Assembly: GCA_949291455.1 (NCBI GenBank)
Contig: CASEVQ010000001.1
Coordinates: forward strand, 1,703 to 65,702
DNA: 64,000 nt
DNA from: an uncultured bacterium
GTDB lineage: Bacteria; Bacillota_I; Bacilli_A; RF39; UBA660
Direction: 5' to 3'
Under the pieces are notes generated by a model. It did no database searches and was not told the origin of the DNA. It worked only from the letters and a program-made list of their open reading frames with translations. Position numbers and translations under genes: made by a program. How positions within the stretch are numbered: the first letter of the stretch is position 1; every line of letters begins with the position of its first letter. Shown here in pieces: positions 1,169 to 25,026 of this stretch.

Positions 1169-1177
1169 AAAAAATAC

Positions 1178-4187: not shown

Positions 4188-4312
4188 CTCTGTTCCCGAC
4201 AATTTGTCGGAAAGTAATAATAAATCTTTAAAATACAAGTTAAACATAAAAAAAGAAATTTTAAAAAAGCCTTATTTTTCAAGGTTTTGATAAGGTATTA
4301 GTGTCCACATTA

Positions 4313-4322
4313 TATTCGTAGA
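4313..4322. repeat. Element 1 right terminal inverted repeat (P arm of attR), TATTCGTAGA
   Basis: Exact reverse complement of 691-700, immediately before core GT 4323-4324. Confidence 0.85.
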
Positions 4323-4324
4323 GT

Positions 4325-4486
4325 TGCTTTAATCAGAACACTAGCAACAGATCCAGACATTTTATTATTAGATGAACCACTATCAGCACTAGATTATCAA
4401 ACAAGACTTGCACTGTCTGATGACTTATATAAAATAATAAAAAATGAAGGAAAAACTGCTATTATGGTAACACATGACTTAGGTGA
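4325..4486 (+). pseudogene. ABC transporter ATP-binding protein, fragment 2 of 3
   Basis: Encodes ALIRTLATDPDILLLDEPLSALDYQTRLALSDDLYKIIKNEGKTAIMVTHDLG (Walker B, D-loop, H-loop). The frame then runs into foreign sequence (ELEF*). Confidence 0.9.
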
Positions 4487-4498
4487 ACTTGAGTTCTA
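4487..4498. repeat. Element 2 left terminal inverted repeat, ACTTGAGTTCTA
   Basis: Exact reverse complement of 10210-10221. Confidence 0.85.
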
Positions 4499-4508
4499 AA
4501 AAGAGAAA

Positions 4509-5768: not shown

Positions 5769-5781
5769 TTGCTACACCTCT

Positions 5782-6336
5782 TTACTTCAAATCATTATAA
5801 ATTAATTTTAATAACAAATTTATATCACCAATGTAAAAACTTAATTTAGTTTTACCATTTTCATAAGCATAACTATTATACTGTTTAACAAAATCATTAT
5901 ATTTATCCACTATAATTCTATAAGAATCAATCATTTTTAAATAATTACTAGAAAAAACTCTACATTTTTCATTTAATAAATTATTATCAAAATCATATTG
6001 ACAACTATTATACAAAACAATTATCTTAAAAGAATTATTATTTAACCTATCATGTATTTTTTCTATTGAAGATAAAATATTATTTTTTTCTATATCAAAA
6101 TCATCAAAATAAACATTAAAAGAATCACTAATTATAACCATATCATCTTTTAATTCATTTGCATTTATATTAAAAATATCATAATAATAATTTATATTAT
6201 TTTTAATATTATTACTTTTCTCAACATCAATAGAATAATCATTTATATAAGCTAAAACATGCTCTAAAGACATAACAAAAATTCCAATAAAAATAAGTGC
6301 AAAACCAATCTTTAGAAAAGAATTTTTGAACATCAA
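5782..6336 (-). CDS. hypothetical membrane-anchored protein
   Basis: 184-codon ORF with an N-terminal hydrophobic helix, tightly packed in the minus-strand array. Confidence 0.55.
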   Translation of the reverse strand: MMFKNSFLKIGFALIFIGIFVMSLEHVLAYINDYSIDVEKSNNIKNNINYYYDIFNINANELKDDMVIISDSFNVYFDDFDIEKNNILSSIEKIHDRLNNNSFKIIVLYNSCQYDFDNNLLNEKCRVFSSNYLKMIDSYRIIVDKYNDFVKQYNSYAYENGKTKLSFYIGDINLLLKLIYNDLK

Positions 6337-6392
6337 TCATCACCTATATTAAAATAATATAAGTTTTAAAATTTTTTGTAAATAATATAAAA

Positions 6393-8333
6393 CTATTTTT
6401 TTATCTTATTTACATTATTATACTTTTTATTTACAAATAAAACTAATGGTACACCTATAATAATAAGTAAAATCTTTGGAAGGTAATTTATATTATTATT
6501 AACGAATGTATTAGGTGGAAGAACAATATCATCATTTAATTCATAAAAAACTTCTATTACATTATCATCAGCATTGTTTGACACAACTAATGGATAATTA
6601 ATTACTTCTTTTAAAGAATAATTGTCAAATTTTTCAAACTTAATATTATCAATTCTTGTTCCAATAATTTGATCGGTTACTATAACTGTTTTACTGTTAT
6701 CAATCTTTCCATTAAAATAATATAATATTTTATAATAATTTGTTTCTTCTTTTAAATATAAAACTTTGATTACATTGTTTTCAACATCGATAGATATTTC
6801 ATTTGTAGATGCAATACCATCTTTATAACCATTTGGTTTATATAAACTTAACCAATTTTCTCCAAAATCATTAACAATATCTTCAGTAGTAACTAATGAT
6901 CCATACTCCCTAAAAACATCTTTAGTTTTTGCTACTAAATTAACGCGTGATATTTCATCCTTGTAATATTCTATATGATAAGAATAAATATTTTTCTCGT
7001 ATACAATATTTAAAACATTATTGTCTTTGTCTATAACAAAATCATTTAAAATAATATTTTCACTAGTATAACCAATAGGCAAATACTTATCTTTCTCTAC
7101 ATTTACTATTCCACCTAGTTCTAAATAATCACTAATAGTTCCAAGTAAATTTTCTTCTGAAATAGAATCTTTATAATAATTTATAGTATATGGATATTTC
7201 TCTTTTTCATAATAAACTTCTGAAGATGAAGACATTACAAGTTTTTGTTCCTGATTATCTTTGTCTTTATATTTTAATACAACTCCTTCATTTAAAATAT
7301 TATTAGTAGCATACCAGCCATTTTCCAAATTATCATTTAACCTTATCTTAAAATTAAAAGATTTTTTTTCATCACTTATTTCACCTAAAGAATAAGTAAC
7401 AACTTTATCATTGACAATTACTCCTTCTCCAGATACATAAGAAAAATCTTCGCCAATAGTATCAATTAATACTGCATCTTTCCCAGCAGAAATCTCTTTA
7501 ATGTCAGTTGCTAATTCTTTTAATACATCTTTAATACCATCAGTTGTAGCATCATAGTAATACTCTTTTCCACTAGCTATACTTTTTAAGATATTTTTTG
7601 CATCCTCACTAGTGTCATAACCAACAGTATATATCTTTATTCCAGCATTTTTAACTCTAGCTATTGACTGAAATAAAAGTTCAGTACTATTAGGTTCCCC
7701 ATCACTTATTATCAATATGTATTTTAAAGAATTATCTTCAACTGAATCTAAATTTTCTTTAGCAAGATCGACTGCTAAATGTAAATTTGTAGCGCCATAT
7801 GGATAATCAAAATCACTAGTATTAAATACTTGATTAGTCCATGAAATTTTGTTTAAAGCATTACTAGAAAAAGTAATTAAATTGATTTTACTAGTTGGAA
7901 TATTTTCTGTTATATCCTTAGAAAAACTTATAGCACCATTAACGGCATTCTCCCATTTATAATTATTAATAGAATCAGTAACCCTACAATATAAATTTTG
8001 ATTATTTATATTAGTAAACTTATTATAAAACAAATCGGAAGATGTTTTTGTTCCATTAGCACAAAGCATGCTACCTGATCTGTCAAAAATAACAGATACA
8101 TAAACATTTTTAGTTGAAGACTCTAGTGTACTTTCCCCTTCTATTACAAACTCTACATTATAAACAAAATCTTCCTCTGTTTTACTTACTTTTTTAGTTA
8201 CTACAATTTCATCATTACTAACACTAACTTCTTCATTCCTTATATCACCACTTTTATAATCTAACGCCAAAACAAAACTAGGTAAAAAAACATAAATAAA
8301 TAAAAAACTTAATAATATTTTTTTTATTTTCAA
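6393..8333 (-). CDS. cell-surface VWA-domain adhesin with three MucBP-like repeats and a non-canonical C-terminal anchor
   Basis: Signal peptide, MIDAS-type motif VIFDRSGSM, and three Y.I.YYKD-type repeats. The C-terminus reads ...VLPPNTFVNNNINYLPK, then a hydrophobic helix, then a basic tail. The stop overlaps the sortase start. Confidence 0.75.
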   Translation of the reverse strand: MKIKKILLSFLFIYVFLPSFVLALDYKSGDIRNEEVSVSNDEIVVTKKVSKTEEDFVYNVEFVIEGESTLESSTKNVYVSVIFDRSGSMLCANGTKTSSDLFYNKFTNINNQNLYCRVTDSINNYKWENAVNGAISFSKDITENIPTSKINLITFSSNALNKISWTNQVFNTSDFDYPYGATNLHLAVDLAKENLDSVEDNSLKYILIISDGEPNSTELLFQSIARVKNAGIKIYTVGYDTSEDAKNILKSIASGKEYYYDATTDGIKDVLKELATDIKEISAGKDAVLIDTIGEDFSYVSGEGVIVNDKVVTYSLGEISDEKKSFNFKIRLNDNLENGWYATNNILNEGVVLKYKDKDNQEQKLVMSSSSEVYYEKEKYPYTINYYKDSISEENLLGTISDYLELGGIVNVEKDKYLPIGYTSENIILNDFVIDKDNNVLNIVYEKNIYSYHIEYYKDEISRVNLVAKTKDVFREYGSLVTTEDIVNDFGENWLSLYKPNGYKDGIASTNEISIDVENNVIKVLYLKEETNYYKILYYFNGKIDNSKTVIVTDQIIGTRIDNIKFEKFDNYSLKEVINYPLVVSNNADDNVIEVFYELNDDIVLPPNTFVNNNINYLPKILLIIIGVPLVLFVNKKYNNVNKIKK

Positions 8334-9034
8334 TACAATTCCTCCTCTATTTTTTTAGCAATTATTAAAAGATAAGAATCATCTGGTTCATAATAACACG
8401 TTTGCATAATTAAAATTTCATCATCATAATCAAAAGTGCTTTGATACAAAGATGATTTATTTAACCAATCAATATGGTCATTCCATTCATCTTTAGTAAA
8501 AGCTAGCTTCATATGCTGAAAATCAGATACTGTAATTACTACATTTGATATTTCATAATAAGATATTTTATTATTACTTTCTAAAATAAGCTTTCTGTTA
8601 TCCAAGTTATTAAAAAAATCGAACTTTAGAAAATTTTCTAACTTTTTAAAATCTGTCGCGATATTCTTAGAATTATGTCCATAAATTAAAAGTTTTGTAT
8701 CAAGATCAATATTATTTCTGTAGTCTAGGAAAATAGAACCAACATTATCAAAGTTTTTATAAACATCATGATTTAAATAATATTCATTGTCTTCTGCCTG
8801 AACCAAAGGAACATCAATATCAATAGATTCTATATAAAGGCGTCCAACAATATCTTGATTATTAAATTTATTTCTTGCTACATTTACATATTCAGAATTT
8901 ACTTGACTACTAACAACTATATCTACTATTTCTTTGTAATTAATTTCTTTAAAATCAATTGGAAACTCAACATTTAAATTAAAAGGTAATAATAAGCTAA
9001 AAGCCAAAACGACAATTTTTCTAATAAACTCCAT
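8330..9034 (-). CDS. class B-like sortase
   Basis: Signal anchor, active-site His in LLIYGHNSKN and Cys in LIMQTCYY. There is no Arg downstream of the Cys. Confidence 0.75.
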   Translation of the reverse strand: MEFIRKIVVLAFSLLLPFNLNVEFPIDFKEINYKEIVDIVVSSQVNSEYVNVARNKFNNQDIVGRLYIESIDIDVPLVQAEDNEYYLNHDVYKNFDNVGSIFLDYRNNIDLDTKLLIYGHNSKNIATDFKKLENFLKFDFFNNLDNRKLILESNNKISYYEISNVVITVSDFQHMKLAFTKDEWNDHIDWLNKSSLYQSTFDYDDEILIMQTCYYEPDDSYLLIIAKKIEEELY

Positions 9035-9085
9035 ATCACCACCTCAATTTTAGTTTATTCCAATGATTTGTATAAATTTGTCTTT

Positions 9086-10183
9086 TTATGAATAAAATAA
9101 AATTTCTTTAATATTTTTATCCAAAACAATTAATTCTTTAATATTCTTAACAATACAAATAAATTTTTGACTATCCCTTTCATCAACATTTAACATACAT
9201 AATAACTTTTTCTTTAATATAATTTCACTTACACAATTAGATCTACAACAATTACAAAAATATTGAATATAAACTTTATTTTTATTATTTTTTGTTAGAT
9301 GACAAGTTTTCTTAATTTTCATTAAACTACCACATGTACATCTAACTTTAAAAATTCCTTTGCTTTTTCGATAATTTTTTATTTTTTTTTGTACAGATAA
9401 ATATTTATTAATATTAACAATAGGAATATGCCTCCCTTTAGTTTCAAAGTATCTATCACTATTTATTCCATAGCGAACATTACCAATATAATTAGGATTT
9501 AATAAAAGAAGCTTTATCGTCTTATAAGACCATTTACATTTATTTTTAGTCAAAATATTATCATTATTTAAAATATTGGCAATTTCCGTATATGAATACC
9601 CTTTTAAAAATAAATCAAAAACTTTATTAACAATTATTGATTCTTCTTTATTTACTTTTTGAATTTTTTTTCCTTTTTCTTTAATATAACCATAACTTAC
9701 ATTTTTTGATGCAATAGTATAGCCTTCTTTTACTTTCCTTTCTAATCCCAATTTGACTCTTTCAACAATGTTTTCCCGTTCAAATTCAGCAAAAATACCT
9801 ATTATTTTTATAAACATTCTCCCTGTAGATGTCTTAGTATCAATTGACTCGTTTAAAGAATTAAAACTACAATTATATTTATTAAAAATATCTATAAGAT
9901 CGATTAAATCTTTTGTTGATCTTGTTAACCTATCTATTTTATAAACTAAAACATTATTAACTTTATTTTCTTTTATATCATCAATTAATCGTCTTAATTC
10001 TTTACGATCAACAATATTTTTTCCACTTATACCTTCATCAATATAAACAGAAAAAACATTCCAATCCTTTATACTGGCATAAGATTTTAATTTTTCTTCT
10101 TGAGCTCTAATTGAATAACCATTATTTGCCTGTTCTTCAGTTGAAACTCTAATATAAATACCTGTGTTAATCATATTCATCAA
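9086..10183 (-). CDS. serine recombinase (element 2, 365 aa)
   Basis: GIYIRVSTEEQ catalytic Ser motif, VYKIDRLTRS, and GIFAEFERENIVERVK. Also a recombinase domain and a Cys-rich C-terminal region. The ATG is 38 bp from the crossover site. Confidence 0.9.
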   Translation of the reverse strand: MMNMINTGIYIRVSTEEQANNGYSIRAQEEKLKSYASIKDWNVFSVYIDEGISGKNIVDRKELRRLIDDIKENKVNNVLVYKIDRLTRSTKDLIDLIDIFNKYNCSFNSLNESIDTKTSTGRMFIKIIGIFAEFERENIVERVKLGLERKVKEGYTIASKNVSYGYIKEKGKKIQKVNKEESIIVNKVFDLFLKGYSYTEIANILNNDNILTKNKCKWSYKTIKLLLLNPNYIGNVRYGINSDRYFETKGRHIPIVNINKYLSVQKKIKNYRKSKGIFKVRCTCGSLMKIKKTCHLTKNNKNKVYIQYFCNCCRSNCVSEIILKKKLLCMLNVDERDSQKFICIVKNIKELIVLDKNIKEILFYS

Positions 10184-10209
10184 TAAATATTATTGTTTTT
10201 TTTGAAAAA

Positions 10210-10221
10210 TAGAACTCAAGT
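10210..10221. repeat. Element 2 right terminal inverted repeat, TAGAACTCAAGT
   Basis: Exact reverse complement of 4487-4498. Confidence 0.85.
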
Positions 10222-10223
10222 GA

Positions 10224-10398
10224 GGCTATAAGTCTATCAGATAGAATAATTGTTTTAACTAAAAGACCATCTACTATAAAAAGTATCTATACAATAAATT
10301 ATGAAAAAAGAGAAACACCAATAAAAAACAGAACAAAAAAAGAATTTAGCATATACTACGATAAAATATGGAGGGATTTAGATGTCCATATACAGTAA
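10224..10398 (+). pseudogene. ABC transporter ATP-binding protein, fragment 3 of 3
   Basis: Encodes (G)EAISLSDRIIVLTKRPSTIKSIYTINYEKRETPIKNRTKKEFSIYYDKIWRDLDVHIQ*. The stop at 10396-10398 overlaps the permease ATG, as in an intact operon. Confidence 0.85.
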
Positions 10399-13258: not shown

Positions 13259-13804
13259 CTAAATATTATTAAAATATTCAATAACACCTTCTGTTATGCT
13301 AATTGCAAGAGTTTCCTGATAATTTTTATCTTGCAATAACTTTCTTTCTTGATAATTAGATAAAAAACCACATTCTATAAGTACTCCAGGAGTATTAATA
13401 TATTTATACATATAAAGATTTGTAGTTGTTATTTCTCTATTTGTCGAAGTGTTTTTTTTAAGACTTTCTTGAATGCTTGATGCTAAAGTTTCATTAAATT
13501 TATTACCTTCATAATATAAAACTTCTGCACCTTTATAATATGAATTTTTATACCAATTAACATGAATAGACAAATAAATATCAGTTTTTAAATAATTCTC
13601 ATCTATCATTTTAATTCTTCGATATAAATCTCCTCTTTTTTTATGTGCATCATAAACACTAGAATGGTCTATATCACTATCTCTAGTTAAAAATACAGTT
13701 GCTCCTTTCAAAGATAACTTTTCTTCTAATACTTTAGCAATTTCTAAATTAATGTCTTTCTCATAAATGTTTCCGTATACTACACCAGGATCACGTCCTC
13801 CATG
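13259..13804 (-). pseudogene. cwlD: N-acetylmuramoyl-L-alanine amidase CwlD-like, 3' fragment
   Basis: Encodes H|GGRDPGVVYGNIYEKDINLEIAKVLEEKLSLKGATVFLTRDSD...YLSIHVN...GVLIECGFLSN...YQETLAISITEGVIEYF, an Amidase_3/CwlD-like sequence. The N-terminal anchor and the DAGH motif are missing here and are found at 24643-24786. Confidence 0.85.
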
Positions 13805-13857
13805 GCTTGCACCTTTTAACCCCAGAAACCATATTCTTTTTTATTATAGGTTATATT

Positions 13858-15462
13858 TTATAAATCAAAATTCCATTCAATCCTAATATCTCTTGTGTTG
13901 ATATCTTTATCTAATGCACCAACATATATTTTTTCTATAAACTCTTCCACTATTATTCTAGTTAGTTTTTTAATATGTTTATATTTTTTTAATATGCTTT
14001 CTATATCTTTTGAATTTTCTTTTCTAGTTTCAGTTTCATCAAGTTGTTTTTCTATATCTTCAAGTCTTGTTTGATAAGATTCAACATCTTTTGTATATTC
14101 CTCTCTTAACATTTGAAAATCATCTTCTGATATAATACCTTTCATCTTATCCATATAAAGATTTTTAAAGTACAACTTGCTTTCATTTAACTTCTTTTCA
14201 AGATTAGCTTTCTCTTTATTTAAATTAGTAATTAATGTATCTTGTCTATTTTGTCTTTCTAATGTTTCATTAAATTCTTCTTTTAGTAATTTTTGATTAC
14301 ATTTTTTTAATAAACCATTTATGGCATCAAGTACATACTTTTCTATAACATCATATCTTATCGATCTATTATTATCACAGACATGATATTTTTTATTTCC
14401 TTTACATTGTAGATATGCTCGTTTTACTCTTGTTCCATTTTCACCTTTTACATTACATTGATTTCTTGCAAATATTTTTCCACATTCTGCACAATAGACT
14501 TTTGCACTTAATATATGTATATTACCATCTTTTGTTGGTCTATGGTGTTTCTTTAGTCTTTTTTGTACTAAATACCAAGTTTCACTATCAATAATAGGCT
14601 CGTGAGCATTTTCAGTAATACTCCATTCTGATTCAGGAACTTTTTTTGCCTTATGATTTTTATAACTAATGTTTGTTCTTTTGCCTTGTACTAAATTACC
14701 CATATAGGTTTCATTTCTAAGCATTGTTGCTATTGTGTCTGGAGTCCATATTCCAGTAGTATCATAATCAAAATTACAACATACAAAATTACTTCCAATA
14801 GATTTTTTATAAAGAGATGGACATAATATTTTTCTTTCATTTAAACTAGCACATATCTTATGATAACCAAGTCCATTTTTATATTTTTCAAAAATTTCTC
14901 TAACAATAGGTGCAACATTTTGATCAATAATAAGTTTATGTTTATCATTGGAGTCTTTCATATATCCATAAGGAGCAAAACTCCCCATAAATAAACCATC
15001 ATCTCTTTTATTCTTTAATGACTTTTTAACATTGTTAGATAAATCTTCTAAATACCATTCATTAACAAGTCCATTGATTTGTCTTGACTTTTTGTTTGAT
15101 TCATTGTTGGTATCAGCATTATCCACTATACTTACAAATCTAACTCCCCATTCAATAAACTTATTATGTAAATATCTTTCTATTACTTCCATATCTCTTG
15201 AAAATCTACTTTGAGTTTTACACAGTACAATATTTATTCTTCCATTTTCACAATCATTAATTAATCTATTAAAATCTGGCCTTTCAACTCCTGCTCCAGA
15301 ATAATCATCATCTGAATAAATATCTACAACTTCCCAATCTTGATCCAAAGCATATTTTAAAAGCATACTTTTTTGATTAGCGATTGATTCACTATCATCA
15401 TTTTTGTTTTTCTTATATCTATCTTCATCAGATAGCCTACAATATACACCTACCTTTTCCAT
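13858..15462 (-). CDS. large serine recombinase (element 3)
   Basis: YCRLSDEDRYKKNKNDDSESIANQ, LCKTQSRFSRDME and NKKSRQINGLVNEWYLED. A zinc-ribbon region (CAECGKIF...LQCKGNKKYHVCDN) and a coiled coil follow. Same architecture and long shared blocks with 1590-3203. Confidence 0.92.
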   Translation of the reverse strand: MEKVGVYCRLSDEDRYKKNKNDDSESIANQKSMLLKYALDQDWEVVDIYSDDDYSGAGVERPDFNRLINDCENGRINIVLCKTQSRFSRDMEVIERYLHNKFIEWGVRFVSIVDNADTNNESNKKSRQINGLVNEWYLEDLSNNVKKSLKNKRDDGLFMGSFAPYGYMKDSNDKHKLIIDQNVAPIVREIFEKYKNGLGYHKICASLNERKILCPSLYKKSIGSNFVCCNFDYDTTGIWTPDTIATMLRNETYMGNLVQGKRTNISYKNHKAKKVPESEWSITENAHEPIIDSETWYLVQKRLKKHHRPTKDGNIHILSAKVYCAECGKIFARNQCNVKGENGTRVKRAYLQCKGNKKYHVCDNNRSIRYDVIEKYVLDAINGLLKKCNQKLLKEEFNETLERQNRQDTLITNLNKEKANLEKKLNESKLYFKNLYMDKMKGIISEDDFQMLREEYTKDVESYQTRLEDIEKQLDETETRKENSKDIESILKKYKHIKKLTRIIVEEFIEKIYVGALDKDINTRDIRIEWNFDL

Positions 15463-15529
15463 TTACTACAACACCTCAATTCCGATTAGTTGTAGCAAAT
15501 ATAAATCTACAAAGAGATTATATAACATT

Positions 15530-15673
15530 TTAAGAATTATTTAAAGCTACGCTGTCCTCTTCTTCTGCTAATATAACTCGTAGTAATTTTTTTGCAATAA
15601 TATCTTTTAAATCAGTTTCTTCGATTACTTTATTATCTTTTGTTACATATATTACATTATAATTTACCTTCAT
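15530..15673 (-). CDS. small conserved protein upstream of the recombinase (candidate directionality/regulatory factor)
   Basis: Not in the ORF track. MKVNYNVIYVTKDNKVIEETDLKDIIAKKLLRVILAEEEDSVALNNS, with a strong RBS AGGGGGG 9 nt upstream. Homologous to 1378-1518. Confidence 0.65.
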   Translation of the reverse strand: MKVNYNVIYVTKDNKVIEETDLKDIIAKKLLRVILAEEEDSVALNNS

Positions 15674-15733
15674 TTTATCTATACCCCCCTTTGTTATTCT
15701 CTATAAAGAATATCCTCCTATTTTAATCATATA

Positions 15734-16231
15734 TCAATCCTCCTTAAACTCTTTTAACAAATTTTCCATATATGCTTGTTCATCTGGACTAGCTGGATCA
15801 TCTACACAAACTTCTGGATGTTCCATCCAATATGGAATTAATTCATTATGAGTCTTATTATTTTTCCTTGTATATTTTTTCCTTTTATCTTGGTAATTTT
15901 TTACTATGTATTTATCCTCTTTTTTTTCTAATATCTTAGAATTTTCTTTACTTACTATTTCGTTATTTAAATAAATTCTTCTTTGCCTATTAACAAATTT
16001 AACTTCAATATATTTTTTCCTTTTTAATTTATTAATAGAGTTAGATATTGTTTTTTCTTTAACACTTAATGTATTAGTAAAGTAACTATTACTGGCGTAG
16101 CAATACTCATTATTATTTGATAGTAAATTAATCACTCCATAAACTAACTTATCTGTTTGGGAACAAGTTTGGTCATTTAATATTATTCTCGGTACAGCTA
16201 TAAAATACCTTATAAAAGCCATATATCCCAT
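15734..16231 (-). CDS. winged-helix (HTH_36-like) replication/initiator-type protein
   Basis: The pattern ...KLVYGVINLLSNNNEYCYASNSYFTNTLSVKEKTISNSINKLKRKKYIEV is typical of plasmid/ICE Rep-type wHTH proteins. Confidence 0.5.
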   Translation of the reverse strand: MGYMAFIRYFIAVPRIILNDQTCSQTDKLVYGVINLLSNNNEYCYASNSYFTNTLSVKEKTISNSINKLKRKKYIEVKFVNRQRRIYLNNEIVSKENSKILEKKEDKYIVKNYQDKRKKYTRKNNKTHNELIPYWMEHPEVCVDDPASPDEQAYMENLLKEFKED

Positions 16232-16536
16232 CCTTCAAATTATAGTTTCTGGTGTTTAAGGGTGCAATATGCCTATGAAGAAATAAGTTTCCATTGGTAA
16301 TAGTTTGAGCTATAACATACATATTTTTAACCCTTAATACTTAATTTGTTCTTTGAAATAAGTTATAGTTCAAACTTGTATTCATCTTATATTTCTATAA
16401 GATAGGTTCTGATATAAGCCTTAATATCTTATCGAGCCTCTTATAACTAGCGTTCATTGTTACTTTTCTAGTTAAGTGTTATTGTGTACATTCCGTTTGA
16501 GTATTCTTTATATATTAGATATATTAGATATTTTAA

Positions 16537-16734
16537 TTATTCTAATAATTCAAGACTTTTTCTCAAATCTATATTTGTGATGTTTACTACTCTCTGAATC
16601 TCTCCTACATTTATATCTGTAAGTAATCTTTCAAATCCTTTAGTATAAATATATGAGTAGATCAATTTCGTTTCCATTGGAATTTTTTTATCTTTCCAAA
16701 TACTATCTGCAACTTCTAGGTATCTAATCTTCAT
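16537..16734 (-). CDS. small wHTH-like protein
   Basis: 65-codon ORF (...ETKLIYSYIYTKG...), divergent from the XRE gene. Confidence 0.4.
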   Translation of the reverse strand: MKIRYLEVADSIWKDKKIPMETKLIYSYIYTKGFERLLTDINVGEIQRVVNITNIDLRKSLELLE

Positions 16735-16841
16735 TCATAGGTTTCCTCCTTTCTGTTAATGTTCTTTGATGTAAAGCTCATCAAATTAAATATAGTCTAC
16801 CATCTTATTTTGAGCTTATCAACACTATAATTACAATTTCG

Positions 16842-16870
16842 TTGACTTTCTCATCATATTGTGATATGGT
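16842..16870 (+). promoter_or_regulatory. candidate sigma-A promoter of the XRE regulator gene
   Basis: TTGACT, a 17-nt spacer, then TATGGT preceded by TGTGA. Located 37 nt upstream of ATG 16907. Confidence 0.4.
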
Positions 16871-16906
16871 TACATAAGTTGAAACGAAGAAAGGTGGTTA
16901 TGATTT

Positions 16907-17512
16907 ATGAAGAAAACTACTACAGAGCTAGGAAAAGTAATAGCAGAAGCAAGAGAAAAACTAGGTATTTCACAAAGAGAATTATCTCGTAGAGCAAATA
17001 TGGATTGTGCCGAAGTTTCTCGTATTGAAGCAGGTAAGAGATTAAAACCTAATGTTTTATATTTAAAAGGTATTGCTGAAACATTAAATTTAAGTATGGT
17101 TGATTTAATGAAACTTGCTGAATATGATGATATAGATATAAATTGGGGAAAAGATTTTATTGATAGAAGATCAACAGCAGATTATCAAAGACAAATCAAA
17201 AGTTATGAGCAATTTTATTCTGATGCTTTAGAACATATTGAAGAAAAAAGAAAAGTTGATTTTTCAGTTAAAGGTGGAATTGCTGATTTAATTGATAAGA
17301 TAGAACTTGCTAAAATAGAAAAGAAAGAAATATCAAATGATGAAATATTAGAAAGATTAAAAGAAATAATTGTTTTAATAAGACCTAATTTAGAAAAATT
17401 AGATAAATCAAAATACCCATCATTTGATAAAGGGGTTTTCCCTAAAATGGAAATAAAGAATAATGTTAAATATAATTTCATTTCTGGAAAAATTATAGAT
17501 AAGGAAGAATAA
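16907..17512 (+). CDS. XRE-family HTH transcriptional regulator with a ~130-aa C-terminal extension
   Basis: HTH_3 motif LGKVIAEAREKLGISQRELSRRANMDCAEVSRIEAGKR. RBS is AAAGGTGG. Confidence 0.8.
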   Translation: MKKTTTELGKVIAEAREKLGISQRELSRRANMDCAEVSRIEAGKRLKPNVLYLKGIAETLNLSMVDLMKLAEYDDIDINWGKDFIDRRSTADYQRQIKSYEQFYSDALEHIEEKRKVDFSVKGGIADLIDKIELAKIEKKEISNDEILERLKEIIVLIRPNLEKLDKSKYPSFDKGVFPKMEIKNNVKYNFISGKIIDKEE

Positions 17513-17647
17513 AATTACGAACACGTTTTGCGAGTTTACTCGTGAAAGTGAGAAAAGTAATTTTATTCATCCATACTTTTGCAAGGCAAAAGAAAAAATA
17601 ATCTTTTTGGCTTTTCGTTAGATTAGTCATTAAGATTATTTTTATAT

Positions 17648-17714
17648 AAAAGATACGCACCACAAATTAATATTTATGTAATATAAATATAATGCGTATC
17701 TTTTCTTTTTATTT
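17648..17714 (+). terminator. long hairpin terminator
   Basis: 12-bp stem AAAAGATACGCA/TGCGTATCTTTT enclosing an inner 8-bp stem ATATTTAT/ATAAATAT. Followed by a T-rich tract. Confidence 0.6.
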
Positions 17715-17859
17715 AAACTTGATTCAAATAAAAAGGCAACAATACCACTTACAAAGTTTGCGGTATGTTGCTTAAATGGGGTTTCAAAAGCCTTCGCCCA
17801 CTGTTATTGGCTTTGCCAATAGCATAGTGGGTTACTATATCGTCTGATATAGTTTTTAA

Positions 17860-17907
17860 AGCGAAAATTCATTAGTTATGTAATTTCTTTTGAATTTTCG
17901 CTTTTTT
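17860..17907. terminator. hairpin terminator (T-tract on the plus strand; probably bidirectional, ending the giant-gene operon)
   Basis: 12-bp stem AGCGAAAATTCA/TGAATTTTCGCT followed by TTTTT. Lies directly after the stop of the 17911-18117 ORF on the other strand. Confidence 0.55.
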
Positions 17908-17910
17908 AGA

Positions 17911-18117
17911 TTATTTGATTAATTTTTTACTTATACCATTCGATTCTAAATTTTGTTCTGTATCTTGTATTAATTTACTAAGATATTCTAATTTTTGCTC
18001 ATTTGTTAAATTTTGGTTAAAATTTGGTTCATTTATGGAATTTGATACTTGTTCTTGTTCAACGACAGATTCTTCCTTATTTAAAATTTCTGGTCCTTTT
18101 AAATCATTATTTTCCAT
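17911..18117 (-). CDS. small acidic protein translationally coupled to the giant ORF
   Basis: Start placed at MENNDLKG. Its ATG lies within the last codons of the giant gene (AAACATGGAAAATAA) and is preceded by GAGGAAGG. Confidence 0.5.
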   Translation of the reverse strand: MENNDLKGPEILNKEESVVEQEQVSNSINEPNFNQNLTNEQKLEYLSKLIQDTEQNLESNGISKKLIK

Positions 18118-21100
18118 GTTTAACACCTTCCTCTTTACCAATACCATTTTCGCTTAACATTGATTCTAATTCATCAGTTCTTTGCAAACTTGAACTTGCC
18201 CAAGAATTTATAAAACTTTGAATATCTTCATTTCTTAAATTTCCTCTAGTACTATGTCTAATAGTTCTTAAAACTTCTTGTGGAGTATAAGTTTGTAATA
18301 AAACACCTATTGCTTCATCACAATGAAATTCTTTTAAATCATAAATTGCATAAGTTTCTTGTAGTGATGATGCAAACTTTATTAATTGCTTTGAAACACT
18401 ATATTGTAAAAATTCTGGATTTAATCGTGCTTTGTTAACAAATCTAGTTCTGTCAAGTGCATCTGCATCTTTTAATACTTCAGCCATTTGTCTTACTCTT
18501 GGTATTTGATCATCAGTAATTCCATTTTTTCGAGCCATTGAAACAAATAATTCATCAACATTAGCAACATTTCTTGGTGTTTCATGAAATTCAATTATAG
18601 TACTAATTATTGATAAATCTTCTGGAGAACATTTATCTTTTAATTTCTCAATAGCAATTTTCGCACTTAATTCAGCATGTTCTTCATAAGCATCAGTTTT
18701 TCTACCTATATCATGATATTTAGCAGATAGCATTATTAAATCTAAATCATGTTTATCTTGAACAACAGATTGTCCAATTAATGTAGAGTACAACAAAACA
18801 TTTTTTATATGTCTTTGTCCATGAACTTTTAATCTGCCATTTACATTTTCTTCTTTGATTTCATTTTCATACATAACTAGTGAAGTAGATAATCCACTAT
18901 CGGTTAATGCACTCATAACATTAGAAGAAGATAATTGTGTATCAAGAATTGCTTGATCAATGGTAGAAATATCACTTTTTTCAAATTGTCTTTCATTACC
19001 ATCACTATTATTAACCATAACTAAGGTTGAATCAATACTTATTTTAAACGATGATTTTAATTTGTTAATATCAATTAATGCTTCTTCAATATTGAAAGAA
19101 GGTAGTGATTGTCCAAGTCCATGTTGAGTATTATTATATTTTTCTTGCTCATTTCTAACCGCTTTTTCTAATTCATAAATACACTCAATTGCAATATTAG
19201 GCTCTGCTGTATATATTTTTTCTATTGTTTCTATAATTTCACCAACAATACTATCTGATAATTGATCATGTTTTGGAAAATACTTTTCAGATATATTAAG
19301 ATGATATTCTCTATTACCTGCATAATTACTTTCATAATCTGATATAATATCTTTTATTAATTTTGAGTCTAAAGTAGTTTTAAATTCATTTAATCTATTT
19401 TGAATTATTTCAAGTTGAGATTTTGCTATTTTTTCTCTTTCAACAACCATAATAGGTAAAGTTTTCTTAACACCATCTACTTCAATAGAAAAGTTAGATG
19501 CTGCTTTTTTAACAGTTTCCCATTGTTTCATTGCTTCTGGATCGCTTAGTCTATCTTCAAAATTATCTACAAAGTAAACTATATAAGATGGTTGTTTTTT
19601 AAACATAGCATCTCCAGAAATACTTCTTCTTTCCCAGACTGTTTCGTTATGTGTATGTCTAGTATAACCTAAAACATCATCTGGTAATAAGTACATTGAT
19701 GAATACATTGAAAATATTTGATAACTATCTTCGGTTGATGCAGAACATAAATCATAAGGTCCAGATAATTGTAATGCACCTAACTCATAATCTGTAAACC
19801 CTAAACAACAATATTTTACTTCTGCAGTACCTAAATTTTTTTCACCTACATAACTACAACAACAACCATGTGATGCTATTTTATCGACATTCCAACTAGC
19901 ATAGTAATCGTCTGGTTCTTCCATACTTGTATAAGCGCCAACAGAAGTTATCATCATTCTACATTTCTTTTTTCCATCACGACCAGCTGCTAAATAAATA
20001 TCAAAATCCTGCTCATCATTTATATTACTAATAACTTTATCTTCTTGAAGTGGTTTAGTAAAACTTTTATTAAATTCTTGAGTAAATAAGTATTTTAACC
20101 TCGTTTCATAAGTAACCATTAAATCTGGTTTAACTACAAATTCAGGGTTAATATTTTCAACATAATATTTTAAAACGTCTAGATTATTTAAACCAATAAT
20201 TTTTTTCATATTCTCAAGCAAAATAAATTCTGATCTACTTTTTTCATCTAGAGAATTTATTGTACTGCTTTCTAAACTTTTACCATATAAATTTACTAAA
20301 TTAATAGCTGTTGCTAAATCAATACCAAAAGTCTTTTCAAAATAAGCAGTTTTTAAACTACCTAGAGTATTTCTTTCTATAAGCATATTTATATAATTTT
20401 CTCTTACAGAATCTATATTTTTTAATTCTTCAAAACTAGAAATATCTAAATGATTATTTGTCATTAATAAATACATTAAATTTTCTTTTTCTTCTGATGA
20501 TAATTCTTTACCATTTATTGATGAAAGTAAATTAGCATATTCAGAAGAATTTATATTATCTAAAGATTTTTCTAAAATAGGAATCCACTCTAAATTATCC
20601 TTATATTTATCTACTAATTCACAAATTATTTTAGCTCTAGAACTATTAGGAGATAATTTTAATATTTTTTCTTGTAACTTTGGATAACAAGATAGTATTT
20701 CAACTTGAGCTTTTGTAAAATGACTAGTTATTTCATCTGACAAAAACCTTGGGTTTACTGTCTTAGAAATTTCATCATTATTAGCATATAATGTTTTTGC
20801 CTTTTGTAAAAAATCAATAGACTTAGTATCTAAGTAATTAGACCATTTAGTTTCATCAACAGATAAGAATAATTGAAGCAATTGATTTTGATTTAAACGA
20901 TTAAGCTTTAATCCAGAATTTATTGCTATATCAATCAATTTTAACATCTCATCTGAATTTGTTATTTCAACATTTAATAAGAAGTTAGGATGATTAACAA
21001 TGTATCTTGCCATGATATCATAATTAGAGCACATCTTACTTCCCCAGTTAGTTAATACAAATTCACTTGTTACCTCATAGCCATAAGATATGGCTAATCT

Positions 21101-23050
21101 ACATAATTCATCGTATTTTTTTTTATCTGCAACACTACATGATTCGATTAAATCCGGTTTTAAAGGTATGGCTTTTTTCATAATATCATAACTACTATTA
21201 TAGGCAGTTGTTGTTGAATAACTATAACCATTTCCCATTTTTTCAACATCTGGCAAGAATCCTGCATCAGTAGAAATTTTACATATTTCATCATATGCTT
21301 CACAAGGTTTAGTAAAAAATCCAACACGATCTAATAATTGTACTCTTTCTAAATAACTTGGATAGGTTCTAACCATTAACTTTGCAGTTTCAGATCCGTA
21401 ACCAAATATTTCATCATCAATTTTGGGAACATAACCACCTTGAATAGCAAGTAAACCTAATTCATCAATTTCTTTTCTTAATAAGTCTTTACTTAAAATA
21501 GTTATATATTCTGGATTTTTAGATATAATTTCTTTCATTGTTTCAAAGTTACCATTAAACAAATTAATAATATCCTTTGTTTGATAACCTTTGTTGATCA
21601 AATAATTATAAAGGTTAATACTATAATTATTACCATATTGAATACTATTATTTAATCGTTGTCCTTTATCTAATTGATACATTATTGCAGTTTCTGTGTA
21701 CAATAATTTATTTTTTCTGTAGCTGTCTCCTCTATATTGATCTATAATAGTACCATTAAATCCATTTTCGATAGCAATCTTTAATAGATCTTCTTGATTT
21801 GGAGTGTCCTCTCTAATTATATTTATCAATTCAGGATTTTCTTGCACCAAAATTTTCATAATTTCAAAGCTATCAGCTAACCTAGGATTATCTTCCACAT
21901 CTTTTAATGTAGGTATGTAACCATTATCAAGTGACAAACGAACTAAATCAAAAAATTCATTTTGTGGAATTTCTAAAGAATAACCACCTTTTAAAGGCCT
22001 AGTTTCAATATACTTAATTGCTTCAGGTCTTTGAAGTATTAATGCTTGCATTAATTTTGGACTTTTCTTAACATATTCACTATTTTGAACATCACTTAAA
22101 TTTGGAACATATCCCATGCATAAAGCAAGTTCATCAATTTGTTCTCTTTGCCTTTTATATATTTTGCAATATTTAACCATTTCTGGATTTTGTTTAACAA
22201 CTTTAGAGAAAAGAAGCAGATTACTAGTTATTAAATAATTATTTAAAATTTCTTCTGGAACATACCCTTGTTTAAATGCTTCAATCCAAAATTGTTCAAA
22301 GGCAGGACTATCAGGATACAATTCTAAAAGCAAATCTGGTCTTTCACTTATAATCTTTTGCTGTGCTTTTGCATTACCAGAAAAAATCTGACTACGAATA
22401 ACTTCTGGTGTAAGTTCTATAGTATCAAGTATTTTATCAACCAAATTTGGATTATTTAATAATTTTGTTTTACTTAAAAAATTCAACGATGGAACAAATC
22501 CCCAATCTAAGGCTTTTATAAACAATTTTTCATTTGAAAAAATACTCATGTAACTATAACTTTCCATCATTTCATTAGTTGGTCTATATCCTTTATCAAC
22601 TAATTTCCCCATAACCTCAGCACTAGAAAATGACCTAAGATGACTATTAATATAATCACTCGATGGGGTATAGCCATTGTCTAAAGCCATCGATACTAAT
22701 TTATCAGATTCCCAATCAGATTCCCAAATATTTTGCTCTATAAAACTTTCAACAATTTTAGGATTTGATTTAATTGCAATTTCAACAAAATGATTAGCTC
22801 TATGATAATGGGATTGTTTCATCTGTATTAAAAATTCTGGATTATTTGAAACCTCTTGCCCAACTCTATCTAAAATCCTATCAACATATTTTTGATTAGA
22901 CAAACCAAAATTTTGATCTCTGTCATTATCAATTAAAAATAATTTATCATAATCTCTTCGCTCTATTAATTGAATAATTTGATTATATCTTTTTCTATCT
23001 TTGCCAGTAATAATATTTAATAAATTATTATTCATTCCAAACAGCTCCAT
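18107..23050 (-). CDS. giant orphan protein (1,647 aa): N-terminal repeat array, Cys-rich central domain, C-terminal HD phosphohydrolase domain
   Basis: Uninterrupted 4.9-kb ORF. HD signature at aa ~1406-1537: H..H, KYHDIGR, EEHAELSA, EFHE, LKDADALDRTRF. About 12 repeats carry an A[LI]..G[YF].P motif. The real start may be the ATG at 23035, which has a GGAG 9 nt upstream. Confidence 0.85.
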   Translation of the reverse strand: MELFGMNNNLLNIITGKDRKRYNQIIQLIERRDYDKLFLIDNDRDQNFGLSNQKYVDRILDRVGQEVSNNPEFLIQMKQSHYHRANHFVEIAIKSNPKIVESFIEQNIWESDWESDKLVSMALDNGYTPSSDYINSHLRSFSSAEVMGKLVDKGYRPTNEMMESYSYMSIFSNEKLFIKALDWGFVPSLNFLSKTKLLNNPNLVDKILDTIELTPEVIRSQIFSGNAKAQQKIISERPDLLLELYPDSPAFEQFWIEAFKQGYVPEEILNNYLITSNLLLFSKVVKQNPEMVKYCKIYKRQREQIDELALCMGYVPNLSDVQNSEYVKKSPKLMQALILQRPEAIKYIETRPLKGGYSLEIPQNEFFDLVRLSLDNGYIPTLKDVEDNPRLADSFEIMKILVQENPELINIIREDTPNQEDLLKIAIENGFNGTIIDQYRGDSYRKNKLLYTETAIMYQLDKGQRLNNSIQYGNNYSINLYNYLINKGYQTKDIINLFNGNFETMKEIISKNPEYITILSKDLLRKEIDELGLLAIQGGYVPKIDDEIFGYGSETAKLMVRTYPSYLERVQLLDRVGFFTKPCEAYDEICKISTDAGFLPDVEKMGNGYSYSTTTAYNSSYDIMKKAIPLKPDLIESCSVADKKKYDELCRLAISYGYEVTSEFVLTNWGSKMCSNYDIMARYIVNHPNFLLNVEITNSDEMLKLIDIAINSGLKLNRLNQNQLLQLFLSVDETKWSNYLDTKSIDFLQKAKTLYANNDEISKTVNPRFLSDEITSHFTKAQVEILSCYPKLQEKILKLSPNSSRAKIICELVDKYKDNLEWIPILEKSLDNINSSEYANLLSSINGKELSSEEKENLMYLLMTNNHLDISSFEELKNIDSVRENYINMLIERNTLGSLKTAYFEKTFGIDLATAINLVNLYGKSLESSTINSLDEKSRSEFILLENMKKIIGLNNLDVLKYYVENINPEFVVKPDLMVTYETRLKYLFTQEFNKSFTKPLQEDKVISNINDEQDFDIYLAAGRDGKKKCRMMITSVGAYTSMEEPDDYYASWNVDKIASHGCCCSYVGEKNLGTAEVKYCCLGFTDYELGALQLSGPYDLCSASTEDSYQIFSMYSSMYLLPDDVLGYTRHTHNETVWERRSISGDAMFKKQPSYIVYFVDNFEDRLSDPEAMKQWETVKKAASNFSIEVDGVKKTLPIMVVEREKIAKSQLEIIQNRLNEFKTTLDSKLIKDIISDYESNYAGNREYHLNISEKYFPKHDQLSDSIVGEIIETIEKIYTAEPNIAIECIYELEKAVRNEQEKYNNTQHGLGQSLPSFNIEEALIDINKLKSSFKISIDSTLVMVNNSDGNERQFEKSDISTIDQAILDTQLSSSNVMSALTDSGLSTSLVMYENEIKEENVNGRLKVHGQRHIKNVLLYSTLIGQSVVQDKHDLDLIMLSAKYHDIGRKTDAYEEHAELSAKIAIEKLKDKCSPEDLSIISTIIEFHETPRNVANVDELFVSMARKNGITDDQIPRVRQMAEVLKDADALDRTRFVNKARLNPEFLQYSVSKQLIKFASSLQETYAIYDLKEFHCDEAIGVLLQTYTPQEVLRTIRHSTRGNLRNEDIQSFINSWASSSLQRTDELESMLSENGIGKEEGVKHGK

Positions 23051-23099
23051 AATATTTGTTTTCTTTAATATAAAACCTAATATCTATTTTATATAATTA

Positions 23100-23141
23100 T
23101 ATCATACTTTTTAATTTTTTTATCATACTTTTTAATTTTTT
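23100..23141. repeat. perfect 21-bp tandem direct repeat (2 copies) upstream of the giant gene
   Basis: TATCATACTTTTTAATTTTTT occurs at 23100-23120 and again at 23121-23141. Confidence 0.9.
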
Positions 23142-23162
23142 TTGTTCATTATCTCTGTAATC

Positions 23163-23750
23163 TTATAAACTCATACCCATATCATCGTTTTTATCTATTT
23201 CATCATCATGTTCTTCATAATCATAGATATTATAATTGCCTTCGTATTCATCGTTATATAAAGGTGTTCTGATAGTTCTATATTGAACTGGTACATTAGC
23301 ATATTCAAATAATTCATCTTCTCTTTGTGAGCCTTTAGCAACATCTTTTACATCTAACATTTTAAAGTCTTTATTATCATAATATTGTTTAACTTCTTCT
23401 TCAGCATGATCCTTAATATATTCAGCACCAATTTGTAATATTTTTCTAAAGAATTGTTTAATTGATTTAATAACTCTTTGTATCTTATCATTTAATTTGT
23501 TATTTTCTTTTTCAAGTTGATTATTTTTATATTCTAATACTTGGACTTCTCGTTTGATATTTTTATTCTCATTTTCAAGACTTTTATAACCACTAGCATA
23601 ACTATTAATTTCATTAAATGCTTCGTTTATTTTAAGTTGTAATTCTATAACTTTTTTAGATGCTTTAACTATTTTATTCATAGTATCAAAAGTATCTTTA
23701 TTAACTATAACTTGATTTTTATTAAATGGTATATTTTTAGTAGTTTTCAT
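23163..23750 (-). CDS. coiled-coil protein (likely detached C-terminal part of the Mob protein)
   Basis: ATGA overlap with the relaxase ORF. Long heptad-like region NENKNIKREVQVLEYKNNQLEKENNKLNDKIQ and an acidic tail. Confidence 0.5.
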   Translation of the reverse strand: MKTTKNIPFNKNQVIVNKDTFDTMNKIVKASKKVIELQLKINEAFNEINSYASGYKSLENENKNIKREVQVLEYKNNQLEKENNKLNDKIQRVIKSIKQFFRKILQIGAEYIKDHAEEEVKQYYDNKDFKMLDVKDVAKGSQREDELFEYANVPVQYRTIRTPLYNDEYEGNYNIYDYEEHDDEIDKNDDMGMSL

Positions 23751-24504
23751 TTTTCATCAAATTCATTAATTGCTTTATCAAGTCTATTATTTCTAACATT
23801 TAAGTTTTCTTCTAATTTTCTATTTATCTTTTTATAATCTTTGATTTTAATATGTTTTCTATCGCTACCTTTAATACCTCTTTCTAAATCATACCCTTTA
23901 CTTACGAATCTTGCATGATATTTATCTTGTAATTCTGATAAATGGATTTTATCTCTAATATATTGTTTTTTAGAAATAGTAAATCTTTCAGTATTAGTTC
24001 TTTTATCAATCTTTTTAATAAGTGGAACAACAACACAATGAATATGTGGTGTTTTTTCATCAAAATGGATGGTTGCGTGTAAAACCTGTTCTTTTGTATA
24101 ACCTAAATCTTCATAAACAAATTCCATACAAATGTCAGCCCAATCTTTAATATCCTCTCTTGTCATATCTTTAAAAAATTCATTAGTAGCAGTAAATAAT
24201 AATTCATCTGCAACAACATTATTTGATTTATCTAGCATTTGTTTAAATGTCTTTTTTCTATTTTCTTGTTCAGTTTTCATTCTTTCTTCGTGTTTTTTTT
24301 TATAATTTTTTACTACATTATAAAACCCCTTAACATATTTATCTGATAAGGGAACAAGTTCTATATTATCTTTACTTCTTTCTATATCTATATCTGGATT
24401 AGATTATAAGCTTTTTTCTCTCTCTTATTATGTGATCCAATTTGTGCTAAATCATTGATAGTCATTATTGGTTCACTTCTAAATATTGCATAATTTAAAT
24501 TCAT
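23747..24504 (-). pseudogene. MobV-family (Pre/Mob) relaxase, frameshifted
   Basis: ATG 24504 (RBS GAGAGG) gives MNLNYAIFRSEPIMTINDLAQIGSHNKREKKAYN, then a stop after 6 more codons. The family-typical continuation SNPDIDIERSKDNIEL...IHFDEKTPHIHCVVVPL (motif HxDE..PHxH) is in the -1 frame from about 24405. Confidence 0.75.
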
Positions 24505-24642
24505 ATATCTACCTCTCTTTCTATTTTTAAGCATAATAAAAATACTTCGTTAAAAAGTATTTGCTTTGTTTATTATTATTTATATAGATTATTATTTGCT
24601 ACAACTAGTTATATTTACATTGGGTTTATTCGTACTTTGGTG

Positions 24643-24786
24643 TCCAGCATCAACAAATATAACTTTACCAAATAATGGAAATTCATCAATATGTGAAATA
24701 GCAACTGATTTATCAATAATTAAAATAATTAAAAATAAAATAACAATTAAAAAAAATTTAAATTTAATTTTTAACATAAATATCAT
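24643..24786 (-). pseudogene. cwlD: CwlD-like amidase, 5' fragment (signal anchor plus DAG(H))
   Basis: MIFMLKIKFKFFLIVILFLIILIIDKSVAISHIDEFPLFGKVIFVDAG(H), after which the frame enters element sequence (QSTNKPNV...). Confidence 0.8.
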
Positions 24787-24885: not shown

Positions 24886-25026
24886 ATGTACGGATTTGAA
24901 TATGGTTATCCAATTTACTGGGGATGTCAAAACAATAGCAACTATAGTTGGCTATGGATTATAATCGTAGTATTTATTATAATATGCTTGTTTAAAAATT
25001 GTGACTCAAGAAATAATTGTCATTAA
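24886..25026 (+). CDS. small hydrophobic Cys-rich peptide (YjcZ-like sporulation peptide?)
   Basis: Not in the ORF track. MYGFEYGYPIYWGCQNNSNYSWLWIIIVVFIIICLFKNCDSRNNCH, with RBS GAAAGGAG 7 nt upstream and a terminator directly downstream. Confidence 0.5.
   Translation: MYGFEYGYPIYWGCQNNSNYSWLWIIIVVFIIICLFKNCDSRNNCH

Follow-up and report, generated by a model that had tools for sequence, protein, structure and literature searches.

A gene for a CwlD-like amidase is split at the codon for its catalytic histidine, His49, by a serine-recombinase element of about 10.8 kb (13803..24642) in an uncultured bacterium of the RF39 lineage. The DNA analyzed is a stretch of 64,000 nucleotides (nt) from assembly GCA_949291455.1 (contig CASEVQ010000001.1, positions 1,703 to 65,702), hereafter the window, to which all coordinates refer. 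Related loci show that the recombinase family of the element recognizes the DNA coding for the conserved D-x-G-H-G-G-x-D motif of Amidase_3 proteins and recombines at the CA of the histidine codon. cwlD is a recurrent target of this family, but one of several Amidase_3 classes. The element is of known kinds, being both a serine-recombinase mobilizable element and a gene-intervening one; what is noteworthy is the rule that directs it to a catalytic-motif codon across amidase families.

Deletion of 13803..24642 with one CA retained restores an uninterrupted open reading frame (ORF) for a CwlD-like amidase of 229 amino acids. The join (24786..24643(-) + CA + 13802..13259(-)) is 690 nt long and gives 229 codons in a stop-free reading frame, in agreement with the coordinates of a preliminary description of this DNA, which had interpreted the insert as a skin-like intervening element. 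The 3' fragment opens (CA)TGGAGGACGTGATCC, translated HGGRDPG. In the occupied state, the 5' frame continues through 16 foreign codons to a stop at 24592. The rebuilt protein has the layout of CwlD, an N-terminal signal anchor and a single Amidase_3 domain in about 230 amino acids, and it matches the Pfam Amidase_3 profile from end to end (E 2e-45, profile positions 1-173 of 174). Its top NCBIfam model is TIGR02883, spore_cwlD (182.8 bits, positions 1-189 of 189); because this score lies below the curated cut-off of 221.55, the name CwlD-like is used. The rebuilt empty site, TTGTTGATGCTGGACATGGAGGACGTGATCC, shows only synonymous differences from the uninterrupted site of L001, a relative about 90% identical (homologous loci are designated by L numbers). 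With the promoter, the signal anchor and 48 codons cut off from the catalytic body, the occupied locus can presumably yield no active CwlD product.

The arrangement might in principle be an assembly artefact, a chimeric contig made of the element and two cwlD halves. The assembly is of metagenome type, and two contigs of other samples (L113, L114) break at the element boundary. Such an origin is nevertheless extremely improbable, given that 7 kb of an independent assembly (L091), with the recombinase-side junction included, are 100% identical, that both junctions are structured as in dozens of loci from unrelated assemblies, and that the cwlD halves join in frame at a shared CA. Within the species, the insertion is a minority allele. 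More than 60 contigs (same 90% protein cluster) carry intact alleles of 226 or 229 amino acids with 96-97% identity to the rebuilt protein, and cwlD is uninterrupted in most alleles; split alleles were found in at least five samples. Samples with split alleles include ERR10610578, ERR11458117, ERR11565277, ERZ24773513 and ERZ28614505, besides the sequencing run of the window. Compared with conspecific alleles, the window allele carries 10 synonymous and 8 non-synonymous changes (ratio of non-synonymous to synonymous substitution rates, dN/dS, roughly 0.24), and the gene is conserved and under purifying selection. The rebuilt 229-aa CwlD and its 226-aa form are absent by exact look-up from a collection of 15 billion proteins, so there is no recorded empty-site copy of the exact strain.

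The recombinase has more than 5000 homologues at E <= 1e-20. A scan limited to one genome per species gave 80 loci with recombinases 47-93% identical. Nearly all of these derive from metagenome-assembled genomes of uncultured gut 'Bacilli/Tenericutes/Mollicutes'. At 60 of the 80 loci, the sequence CA(T/C) GGN GGN lies no more than 160 nt past the recombinase stop codon and encodes the His-Gly-Gly that opens the 3' part of an Amidase_3 gene. At most of the other 20, the amidase 3' part follows after a few hundred more nt, or the recombinase lies at the opposite end of the element. The right ends of all relatives read ...AGCCA|YGGNGG, and the left ends, where visible, abut codons for ...(V/I)-D-(A/P)-G, in the form ...GAT GCN GGN|CAC C(C/A)(A/G)AG...TAWACCCA. 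The third base of the histidine codon always comes from the recombinase side (C in L011, T in the window), which places the exchange at the CA dinucleotide and is in keeping with the action of a serine recombinase.

The genes interrupted at these loci belong to several classes. Eight of the 80 are of the cwlD type, with a signal anchor, a total length of about 225 amino acids and TIGR02883 scores of 199-206 bits. A further class, with 25 members, encodes leaderless proteins in which an N-terminal Amidase_3 domain is followed by four LysM repeats, and 22 are long-type (Amidase_3-LysM) copies that are interrupted a second time. cwlD has been hit repeatedly, in at least nine species. The preliminary description had considered that relatives might carry cwlD fragments with additional inactivating mutations, which would speak against the skin-like reading. 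This is not the case: both fragments are intact and free of secondary lesions in all ten split cwlD genes examined.

Judging from pairwise identities, the recombinase and CwlD phylogenies are uncoupled. The recombinases of the window and L011 are 93% identical but their CwlD proteins 48%, and the corresponding values for L036 and L063 are 89% and 51%. A 94%-identical recombinase, accompanied by a control region 89% identical at the nucleotide level, is found in a long-type amidase gene with entirely different cargo, and relatives bear intact relaxases. In addition, conspecific loci from four other samples (L111-L114) contain a cwlD 3' fragment with 97.5% nucleotide identity to that of the window, joined at the same CA to a different element end with a recombinase 59% identical in protein; two family members have therefore hit one site within one species. 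The uncoupled phylogenies and this second occupant together indicate that the elements are mobile and that their insertions are recurrent and polymorphic. This horizontal mobility runs counter to the earlier suggestion that the frameshifted relaxase reflects domestication. The frameshift itself was correctly recognized and in fact occurs twice: one base has been lost near 24404 and another near 23750 (tblastn with the intact 440-aa relaxase of L002, and DNA alignment), in one of the two cases outside any homopolymer.

The features of the element and of other loci in the window are summarized in Table 1. The precise division of cwlD by a serine-recombinase element, as first proposed, is real. 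Its recombinase belongs to the TndX/TnpX (DUF4368) clade, matches PHROG integrases (8e-109) and is 32.5% identical to TndX over 99% of its length; the gene ends 53 nt from the right junction, which reads ...GGTGCAAGC-CA. Among the ORFs of the element, Pfam and PHROG searches revealed no phage structural genes and no conjugation or type IV secretion genes, and megablast gave no match of the element to known phages or plasmids. For these reasons the insert is classified as a MobV-type integrative mobilizable element and not as a prophage remnant. The hairpin stretch and relaxase start are the best-conserved part of the left end across the family. Towards the right end, the cI-like gene is divergent from an excision/replication operon, one protein of which is similar to DnaD-like replication initiators in their N-terminal domain. 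The 47-aa ORF gave no family match in Pfam, PHROG and further profile searches; it could be considered a candidate directionality factor. The 1647-aa cargo protein has repeated GY(V/T)P-containing segments in its N-terminal half and a Cys-rich middle region. PADLOC and the PDB yielded no match to it and PHROG a single weak one, and its exact sequence is absent from the protein collection. Close relatives of the element bear different cargo.

Table 1. Coordinates of the cwlD gene fragments, the inserted element and other features of the window
Feature	Position	Strand	Description
cwlD 3' fragment	13259..13802	-	(CA)T GGA GGA CGT... = HGGRDPG... to the natural C-terminus and stop
Right arm and right junction (attR)	13803..13857	-	Ends ...TTTCTGGGGTTAAAAGGTGCAAGC-CA, CA = 13804..13803
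Large serine recombinase	13858..15462	-	534 aa, intact; Resolvase, Recombinase, Zn_ribbon_recom, DUF4368 (Pfam)
Recombinase promoter and 5' hairpin	15463..15545	-	TTTAAA-17-TATAAT at 15545..15517
47-aa ORF	15530..15673	-	Directly 5' of recombinase; ORF of 45-48 aa there in all close relatives
HTH_36 protein	15734..16231	-	Pfam HTH_36 1.6e-12; PHROG replication initiation / DnaD-like, ~2e-11
Small winged-helix-like ORF	16537..16734	-	85 aa in relatives, 65 aa here
Divergent control region	16735..16906		TTGACAA-17-TGnTAnACT promoter, then operator-like inverted repeat TTGATG..CATCAA
cI-like HTH_3 repressor	16907..17512	+	Pfam HTH_3 1.7e-10; PHROG transcriptional repressor; position kept in relatives
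Cargo protein, 1647 aa	18107..23050	-	Function not assigned; C-terminal HD domain, Pfam HD 9.6e-5 (weak)
MobV/Mob_Pre relaxase pseudogene	23163..24504	-	Three frames; Pfam Mob_Pre 9e-28, NCBIfam MobV 3e-26
Candidate oriT (origin of transfer) hairpin	24540..24562	-	AAATACTT-TTTAACG-AAGTATTT, just 5' of relaxase start; putative
Left junction (attL) dinucleotide CA	24641..24642	-	Bases 1-2 of His49 codon
cwlD 5' fragment	24643..24786	-	Start codon, signal anchor, codons 1-48 (Met1-Gly48), ends ...GKVIFVDAG; aligns with intact CwlD homologues
46-aa hydrophobic ORF	24886..25026	+	Adjoins cwlD in all relatives (L001, L115-L117)
ABC-ATPase insert 1	691..4324		537-aa large serine recombinase, PADLOC PDC-S13 candidate defence gene, inverted-repeat ends
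ABC-ATPase insert 2	4481..10217		VWA protein, class B sortase, 365-aa short serine recombinase, inverted-repeat ends

The copy of the element in the window is decaying. It carries three lesions: the relaxase is frameshifted twice, and the small winged-helix ORF contains a nonsense codon, a CAA->TAA change that truncates it and is followed by a 9-bp duplication. These lesions raise the alternative that the copy can no longer excise and that cwlD is permanently inactive, in a strain that either forms germination-defective spores or no longer depends on sporulation. In line with this, the rebuilt CwlD has six residues that are unique among 14 conspecific alleles, compared with 0-1 in each of the others, sporulation has been lost repeatedly in the host clade (PMC10868615), and an ATP-binding cassette (ABC) transporter ATPase gene in the window has remained split since before the divergence from L001. 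Such permanent loss is nonetheless quite unlikely, as no damage is seen in the recombinase, its promoter or either junction arm, all of which agree with the family consensus, and both cwlD fragments are open, with the dN/dS given above. Furthermore, the relaxase serves transfer and is not needed for excision.

Several properties are shared with known transposons. Like Tn4451/Tn4453 (TnpX + TnpZ) and Tn5397 (TndX), the element encodes a DUF4368 large serine recombinase, with full-length similarity to TndX and a match in the PDB to the N-terminal domain of TnpX. Also shared are a Mob_Pre/MobV relaxase, the lack of conjugation genes and a 2-bp crossover dinucleotide at both ends. The element can therefore be described as Tn4451-like in a broad sense: it has a large serine recombinase with a 2-bp core, its family moves horizontally, and it possesses its own relaxase without a conjugation apparatus, although this relaxase is intact in relatives and a pseudogene here and the oriT is putative. 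Assignment to Tn4451/Tn4453 proper (tnpX-tnpV-catP-tnpY-tnpZ-tnpW, GA core) was rejected, since the core is CA and no TnpV, TnpY or TnpW match was found in the element. It likewise has no resistance gene, and has instead a cI-like switch and a DnaD-like protein. Its recombinase lies at the distal end and reads outward, and not at the left end and inward as in those transposons. Unlike those transposons, it has a tightly defined target, the GHGG codons of Amidase_3.

Durrant et al. (2022, PMC10083194) assign DUF4368 recombinases to a TndX-like clade described as 'multi-targeting'. The present family resembles that clade in having a DUF4368 recombinase in target genes that would cluster separately at 50% identity, and it resembles the conserved-site recombinases of the same study in that one conserved coding site is common to diverse recombinases. 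In contrast to multi-targeting as described there, the apparent diversity of targets is explained here by one short catalytic-motif sequence of paralogous amidase families. Amidase genes are absent from the main text of that study.

Intervening elements have been described in a number of sporulation genes. These include skin in sigK (SpoIVCA; CD1231 + CD1234), SPbeta in spsM (SprA/SprB), vfbin in spoVFB, vrin in spoVR, gin in gerE (GirC/GirX) and yin in yabG. The cwlD element shares with them the location of a serine-recombinase element within a sporulation coding sequence, from which precise excision would rebuild the ORF. Like gin (PMC5595907), it is non-viral; a phage-derived skin homologue was ruled out, there being no phage structural genes. 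It differs from the known elements in having cwlD as its target, in being mobilizable with a relaxase, in being horizontally mobile and polymorphic, and in recognizing a motif-coding sequence of several amidase families and not a single gene. Sequence analysis also found no sporulation-specific control. As the preliminary description had supposed, cwlD lies outside the targets described in the searchable literature (sigK, spsM, spoVFB, spoVR, gerE, yabG), and a literature search yielded no paper in which cwlD or an amidase gene is connected with an intervening element or with the attachment site of a serine recombinase. cwlD thus appears to be an undescribed target. Of the proposed likeness to skin, the precise split of cwlD, the CA-core join and the position of the recombinase at one end hold; the insert is not phage-like, and the scans found no sporulation-type promoter.

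The promoters of the element are predicted to be of the housekeeping (sigma-A) type, in the layout of a cI/Cro-like lysogeny switch. Directly 5' of the recombinase, inside the end of the 47-aa ORF, the TTTAAA-17-TATAAT promoter is at least 90% conserved among 26 aligned family members. Between the cI-like gene and the small ORF, TTGACAA-17-TGnTAnACT and an operator-like repeat are conserved among 11 aligned members. The 5' untranslated region of the recombinase forms a predicted hairpin (15463..15516(-), and homologous positions in L002-L092) that adjoins the ribosome-binding site, with a minimum free energy of -16.1 kcal/mol (z -3.8). Its stems vary in a compensatory way between subfamilies (CUACAAC/GUUGUAG, UUAUACCUC/GAGGUGUAA, UUACCUCA/UGAGGUGA), and its conservation suggests translational control of the recombinase level. 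Scans for sigma-E, sigma-K, sigma-F and sigma-G consensus sequences found no conserved sporulation-type promoter, though such scans are weak evidence in DNA of 26% G+C. In front of the recombinase, where the preliminary description had proposed a search for sigma-E/K-type promoters, the conserved signals seen were of sigma-A type. The one match that lies near a relevant gene, a sigma-K-like sequence, covers the start of the 46-aa ORF on the opposite strand and is probably fortuitous. A generic sigma-70 scan returned fewer sites than in shuffled sequence.

These observations can be read in two principal ways. The reading that we favor, with about even confidence, is that cwlD is a tolerated safe-harbor site, into which the element inserts opportunistically and from which it leaves under its own excision control. 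cwlD would be hit because it contains the motif, and its occupation would be costless in vegetative growth. Action of the recombinase on both junctions would restore cwlD exactly and release a circle of 10,838 bp, given the 2-bp CA core; the closest characterized enzymes, TndX and TnpX, are known to mediate integration as well as excision without a partner protein. Excision would be governed by the cI/Cro-like switch, the sigma-A-type recombinase promoter and the translational hairpin, with no dedicated sporulation programme, and germination-competent spores would arise only from cells in which the element has been excised.

Some evidence weighs against the safe-harbor reading. The intact fragments of all ten split genes, the dN/dS of the window allele, the spread of split alleles over at least five samples and the retention of an intact recombinase despite the decay of transfer functions also fit selection for reconstitution in sporulation. 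Moreover, every tested published element in a mother-cell sporulation gene is excised during sporulation (PMC4191935, PMC5595907, PMC10747680, PMC5025042). The promoter inference is also weak at this G+C content, and a small directionality factor may exert the control.

The second reading is a skin-like switch, in which excision in the mother cell during sporulation rebuilds cwlD for cortex modification while the forespore keeps the element, with the recombinase possibly aided by the 47-aa or the small winged-helix protein as directionality factor. We regard this as a tentative possibility that the present evidence does not support. Its architecture fits, with a sporulation gene precisely split and a serine recombinase at one end, and CwlD of Bacillus subtilis and Clostridioides difficile is not known to act outside sporulation. 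The repeated hits on cwlD with fragments always intact, the persistence of split alleles in several samples and the loss of the relaxase while the recombinase was kept all agree with it. The leaderless Amidase_3-LysM targets have a layout like that of CwlC, a mother-cell lysin, and this too would favor a link to sporulation. The host clade includes predicted spore-formers (PMC10868615), and a weakly GerS-like gene is present in the window. On the other hand, the conserved promoter at the recombinase is sigma-A-like and its operon lies under a cI/Cro-type switch, no conserved sporulation sigma-factor motif was found, and this copy has a shortened small winged-helix ORF. The control module shares 89% nucleotide identity with that of an element in another amidase gene, and therefore has no feature peculiar to cwlD. 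Further points are the horizontal mobility of the elements, the presence of the insertion in a minority of alleles and the like splitting of non-sporulation genes in the same genome. Apart from the weak GerS-like match, no sporulation regulators or other sporulation genes were found elsewhere in the window.

Public assemblies likewise provide no trace of excision, with neither an empty-site copy of the strain nor a circle junction. The circle-junction sequence expected after excision is GGTTAAAAGGTGCAAGCCACCAAAGTACGAATAAACCC; searched as a strict IUPAC pattern, it gave no matches in JGI metagenome contigs and IMG/VR. Thirteen metagenome matches to a looser pattern were attributed to chance, as they have 38-59% G+C and no recombinase or relaxase.

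A broader form of the sporulation hypothesis extends it to the whole family. These would then be sporulation-coupled intervening elements that have specialized on cwlD and the CwlC-like Amidase_3-LysM gene, both mother-cell amidase genes, at their GHGG codons and that excise in the mother cell. We consider this rather unlikely. If true, sporulation gene rearrangement would be widespread in reduced-genome lineages of the RF39/RFN20 type, and a single element family could exploit several sporulation genes by targeting a motif.

With this case, cwlD, and Amidase_3 genes more broadly, are added to the genes split by serine-recombinase elements. The elements form a very abundant family among uncultured gut Bacilli, and their attachment site follows a rule that can be read from the sequence, namely the CA of the catalytic histidine codon; recombinases with such short, defined sites may interest genome engineers. 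Should excision prove to be coupled to sporulation, a cortex-modification gene would for the first time be known to harbor an intervening element, and junction reads in metagenomes could reveal sporulation in uncultured lineages. If it is not, the case advises caution, because a split sporulation gene with a serine recombinase would by itself be no sign of a skin-like switch.

Gene splitting in the window extends beyond cwlD. An ABC-transporter ATPase gene lies in three pieces (275..690, 4325..4480 and 10218..10385, +), from which an intact 243-aa protein can be rebuilt. Its signature motif (LSGGMRQRV|ALIR) and its H-loop (VTHDL|SEAI) are the two points of interruption. The recombinase of the first insert (1590..3203, +) is 44% identical to that of the cwlD element and sits at the ABC-signature codons; the two are therefore related enzymes with different conserved-motif targets. 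This insert is missing in the conspecific L116, where the ATPase fragment is 196 aa long, so that one insert is polymorphic, while the other is common to L001 and all conspecific strains examined. As this gene has no part in sporulation and is split likewise, splitting alone does not point to developmental excision.

The long Amidase_3-LysM genes of the family survey are also cut more than once. The second cut always follows directly after SNH(I/L)NAGG (SNH(I/L)NAGG|G) and involves several other element families, some of which begin with a TnpV-like gene (L002-L005, L013, L016-L019, L026, L028-L031, L040, L047, L049, L058, L059, L066, L079, L084-L086). In L031, the rest of the gene lies 7.5 kb downstream, past an element that encodes a separate recombinase of 508 aa. 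Three loci (L014, L035 and L071) show a third cut site near residue 200. Together with the ABC-ATPase, these second cuts at motif codons indicate that landing on motif codons is general in these genomes and not specific to sporulation. In such small genomes, different recombinase families land on several sets of conserved-motif codons (GHGG and NAGG|G of amidases; ABC signature and H-loop).

The surroundings of cwlD vary within the species. In L001, as in the window, rplM, rpsI, a 46-aa ORF, cwlD (uninterrupted in L001), a SpaA-like gene and a sortase gene follow one another. The rplM-rpsI neighborhood noted in the preliminary description therefore holds for these two, but not for the conspecific L115-L117, in which an intact cwlD is not beside rpsI but downstream of gmk, a gene for a SHOCT protein and the 46-aa ORF. 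The ribosomal protein operon forms part of a roughly 30-kb segment whose placement in L115-L117 differs from that at 24.9-55.8 kb of the window, which reflects either a strain rearrangement or a misassembly in one of them. The 46-aa ORF had been described as YjcZ-like, an assignment that is withdrawn, as no YjcZ or sporulation-peptide match was obtained with NCBIfam or Pfam even at E <= 1. Elsewhere in the window, a 333-aa protein (49845..50846(-)) matches the GerS model over nearly its full length (E 3.5e-11, 42.9 bits against a cut-off of 175); GerS is a germination lipoprotein and the partner of CwlD in C. difficile. In L111, L112, L115 and L117, a further serine-recombinase element lies between the sortase and an ABC permease gene, which it cuts down to 207 aa. 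It encodes a GH10 + PHP protein of 1075-1098 aa and a recombinase of 448-479 aa, and is absent from the window, L001 and L116.

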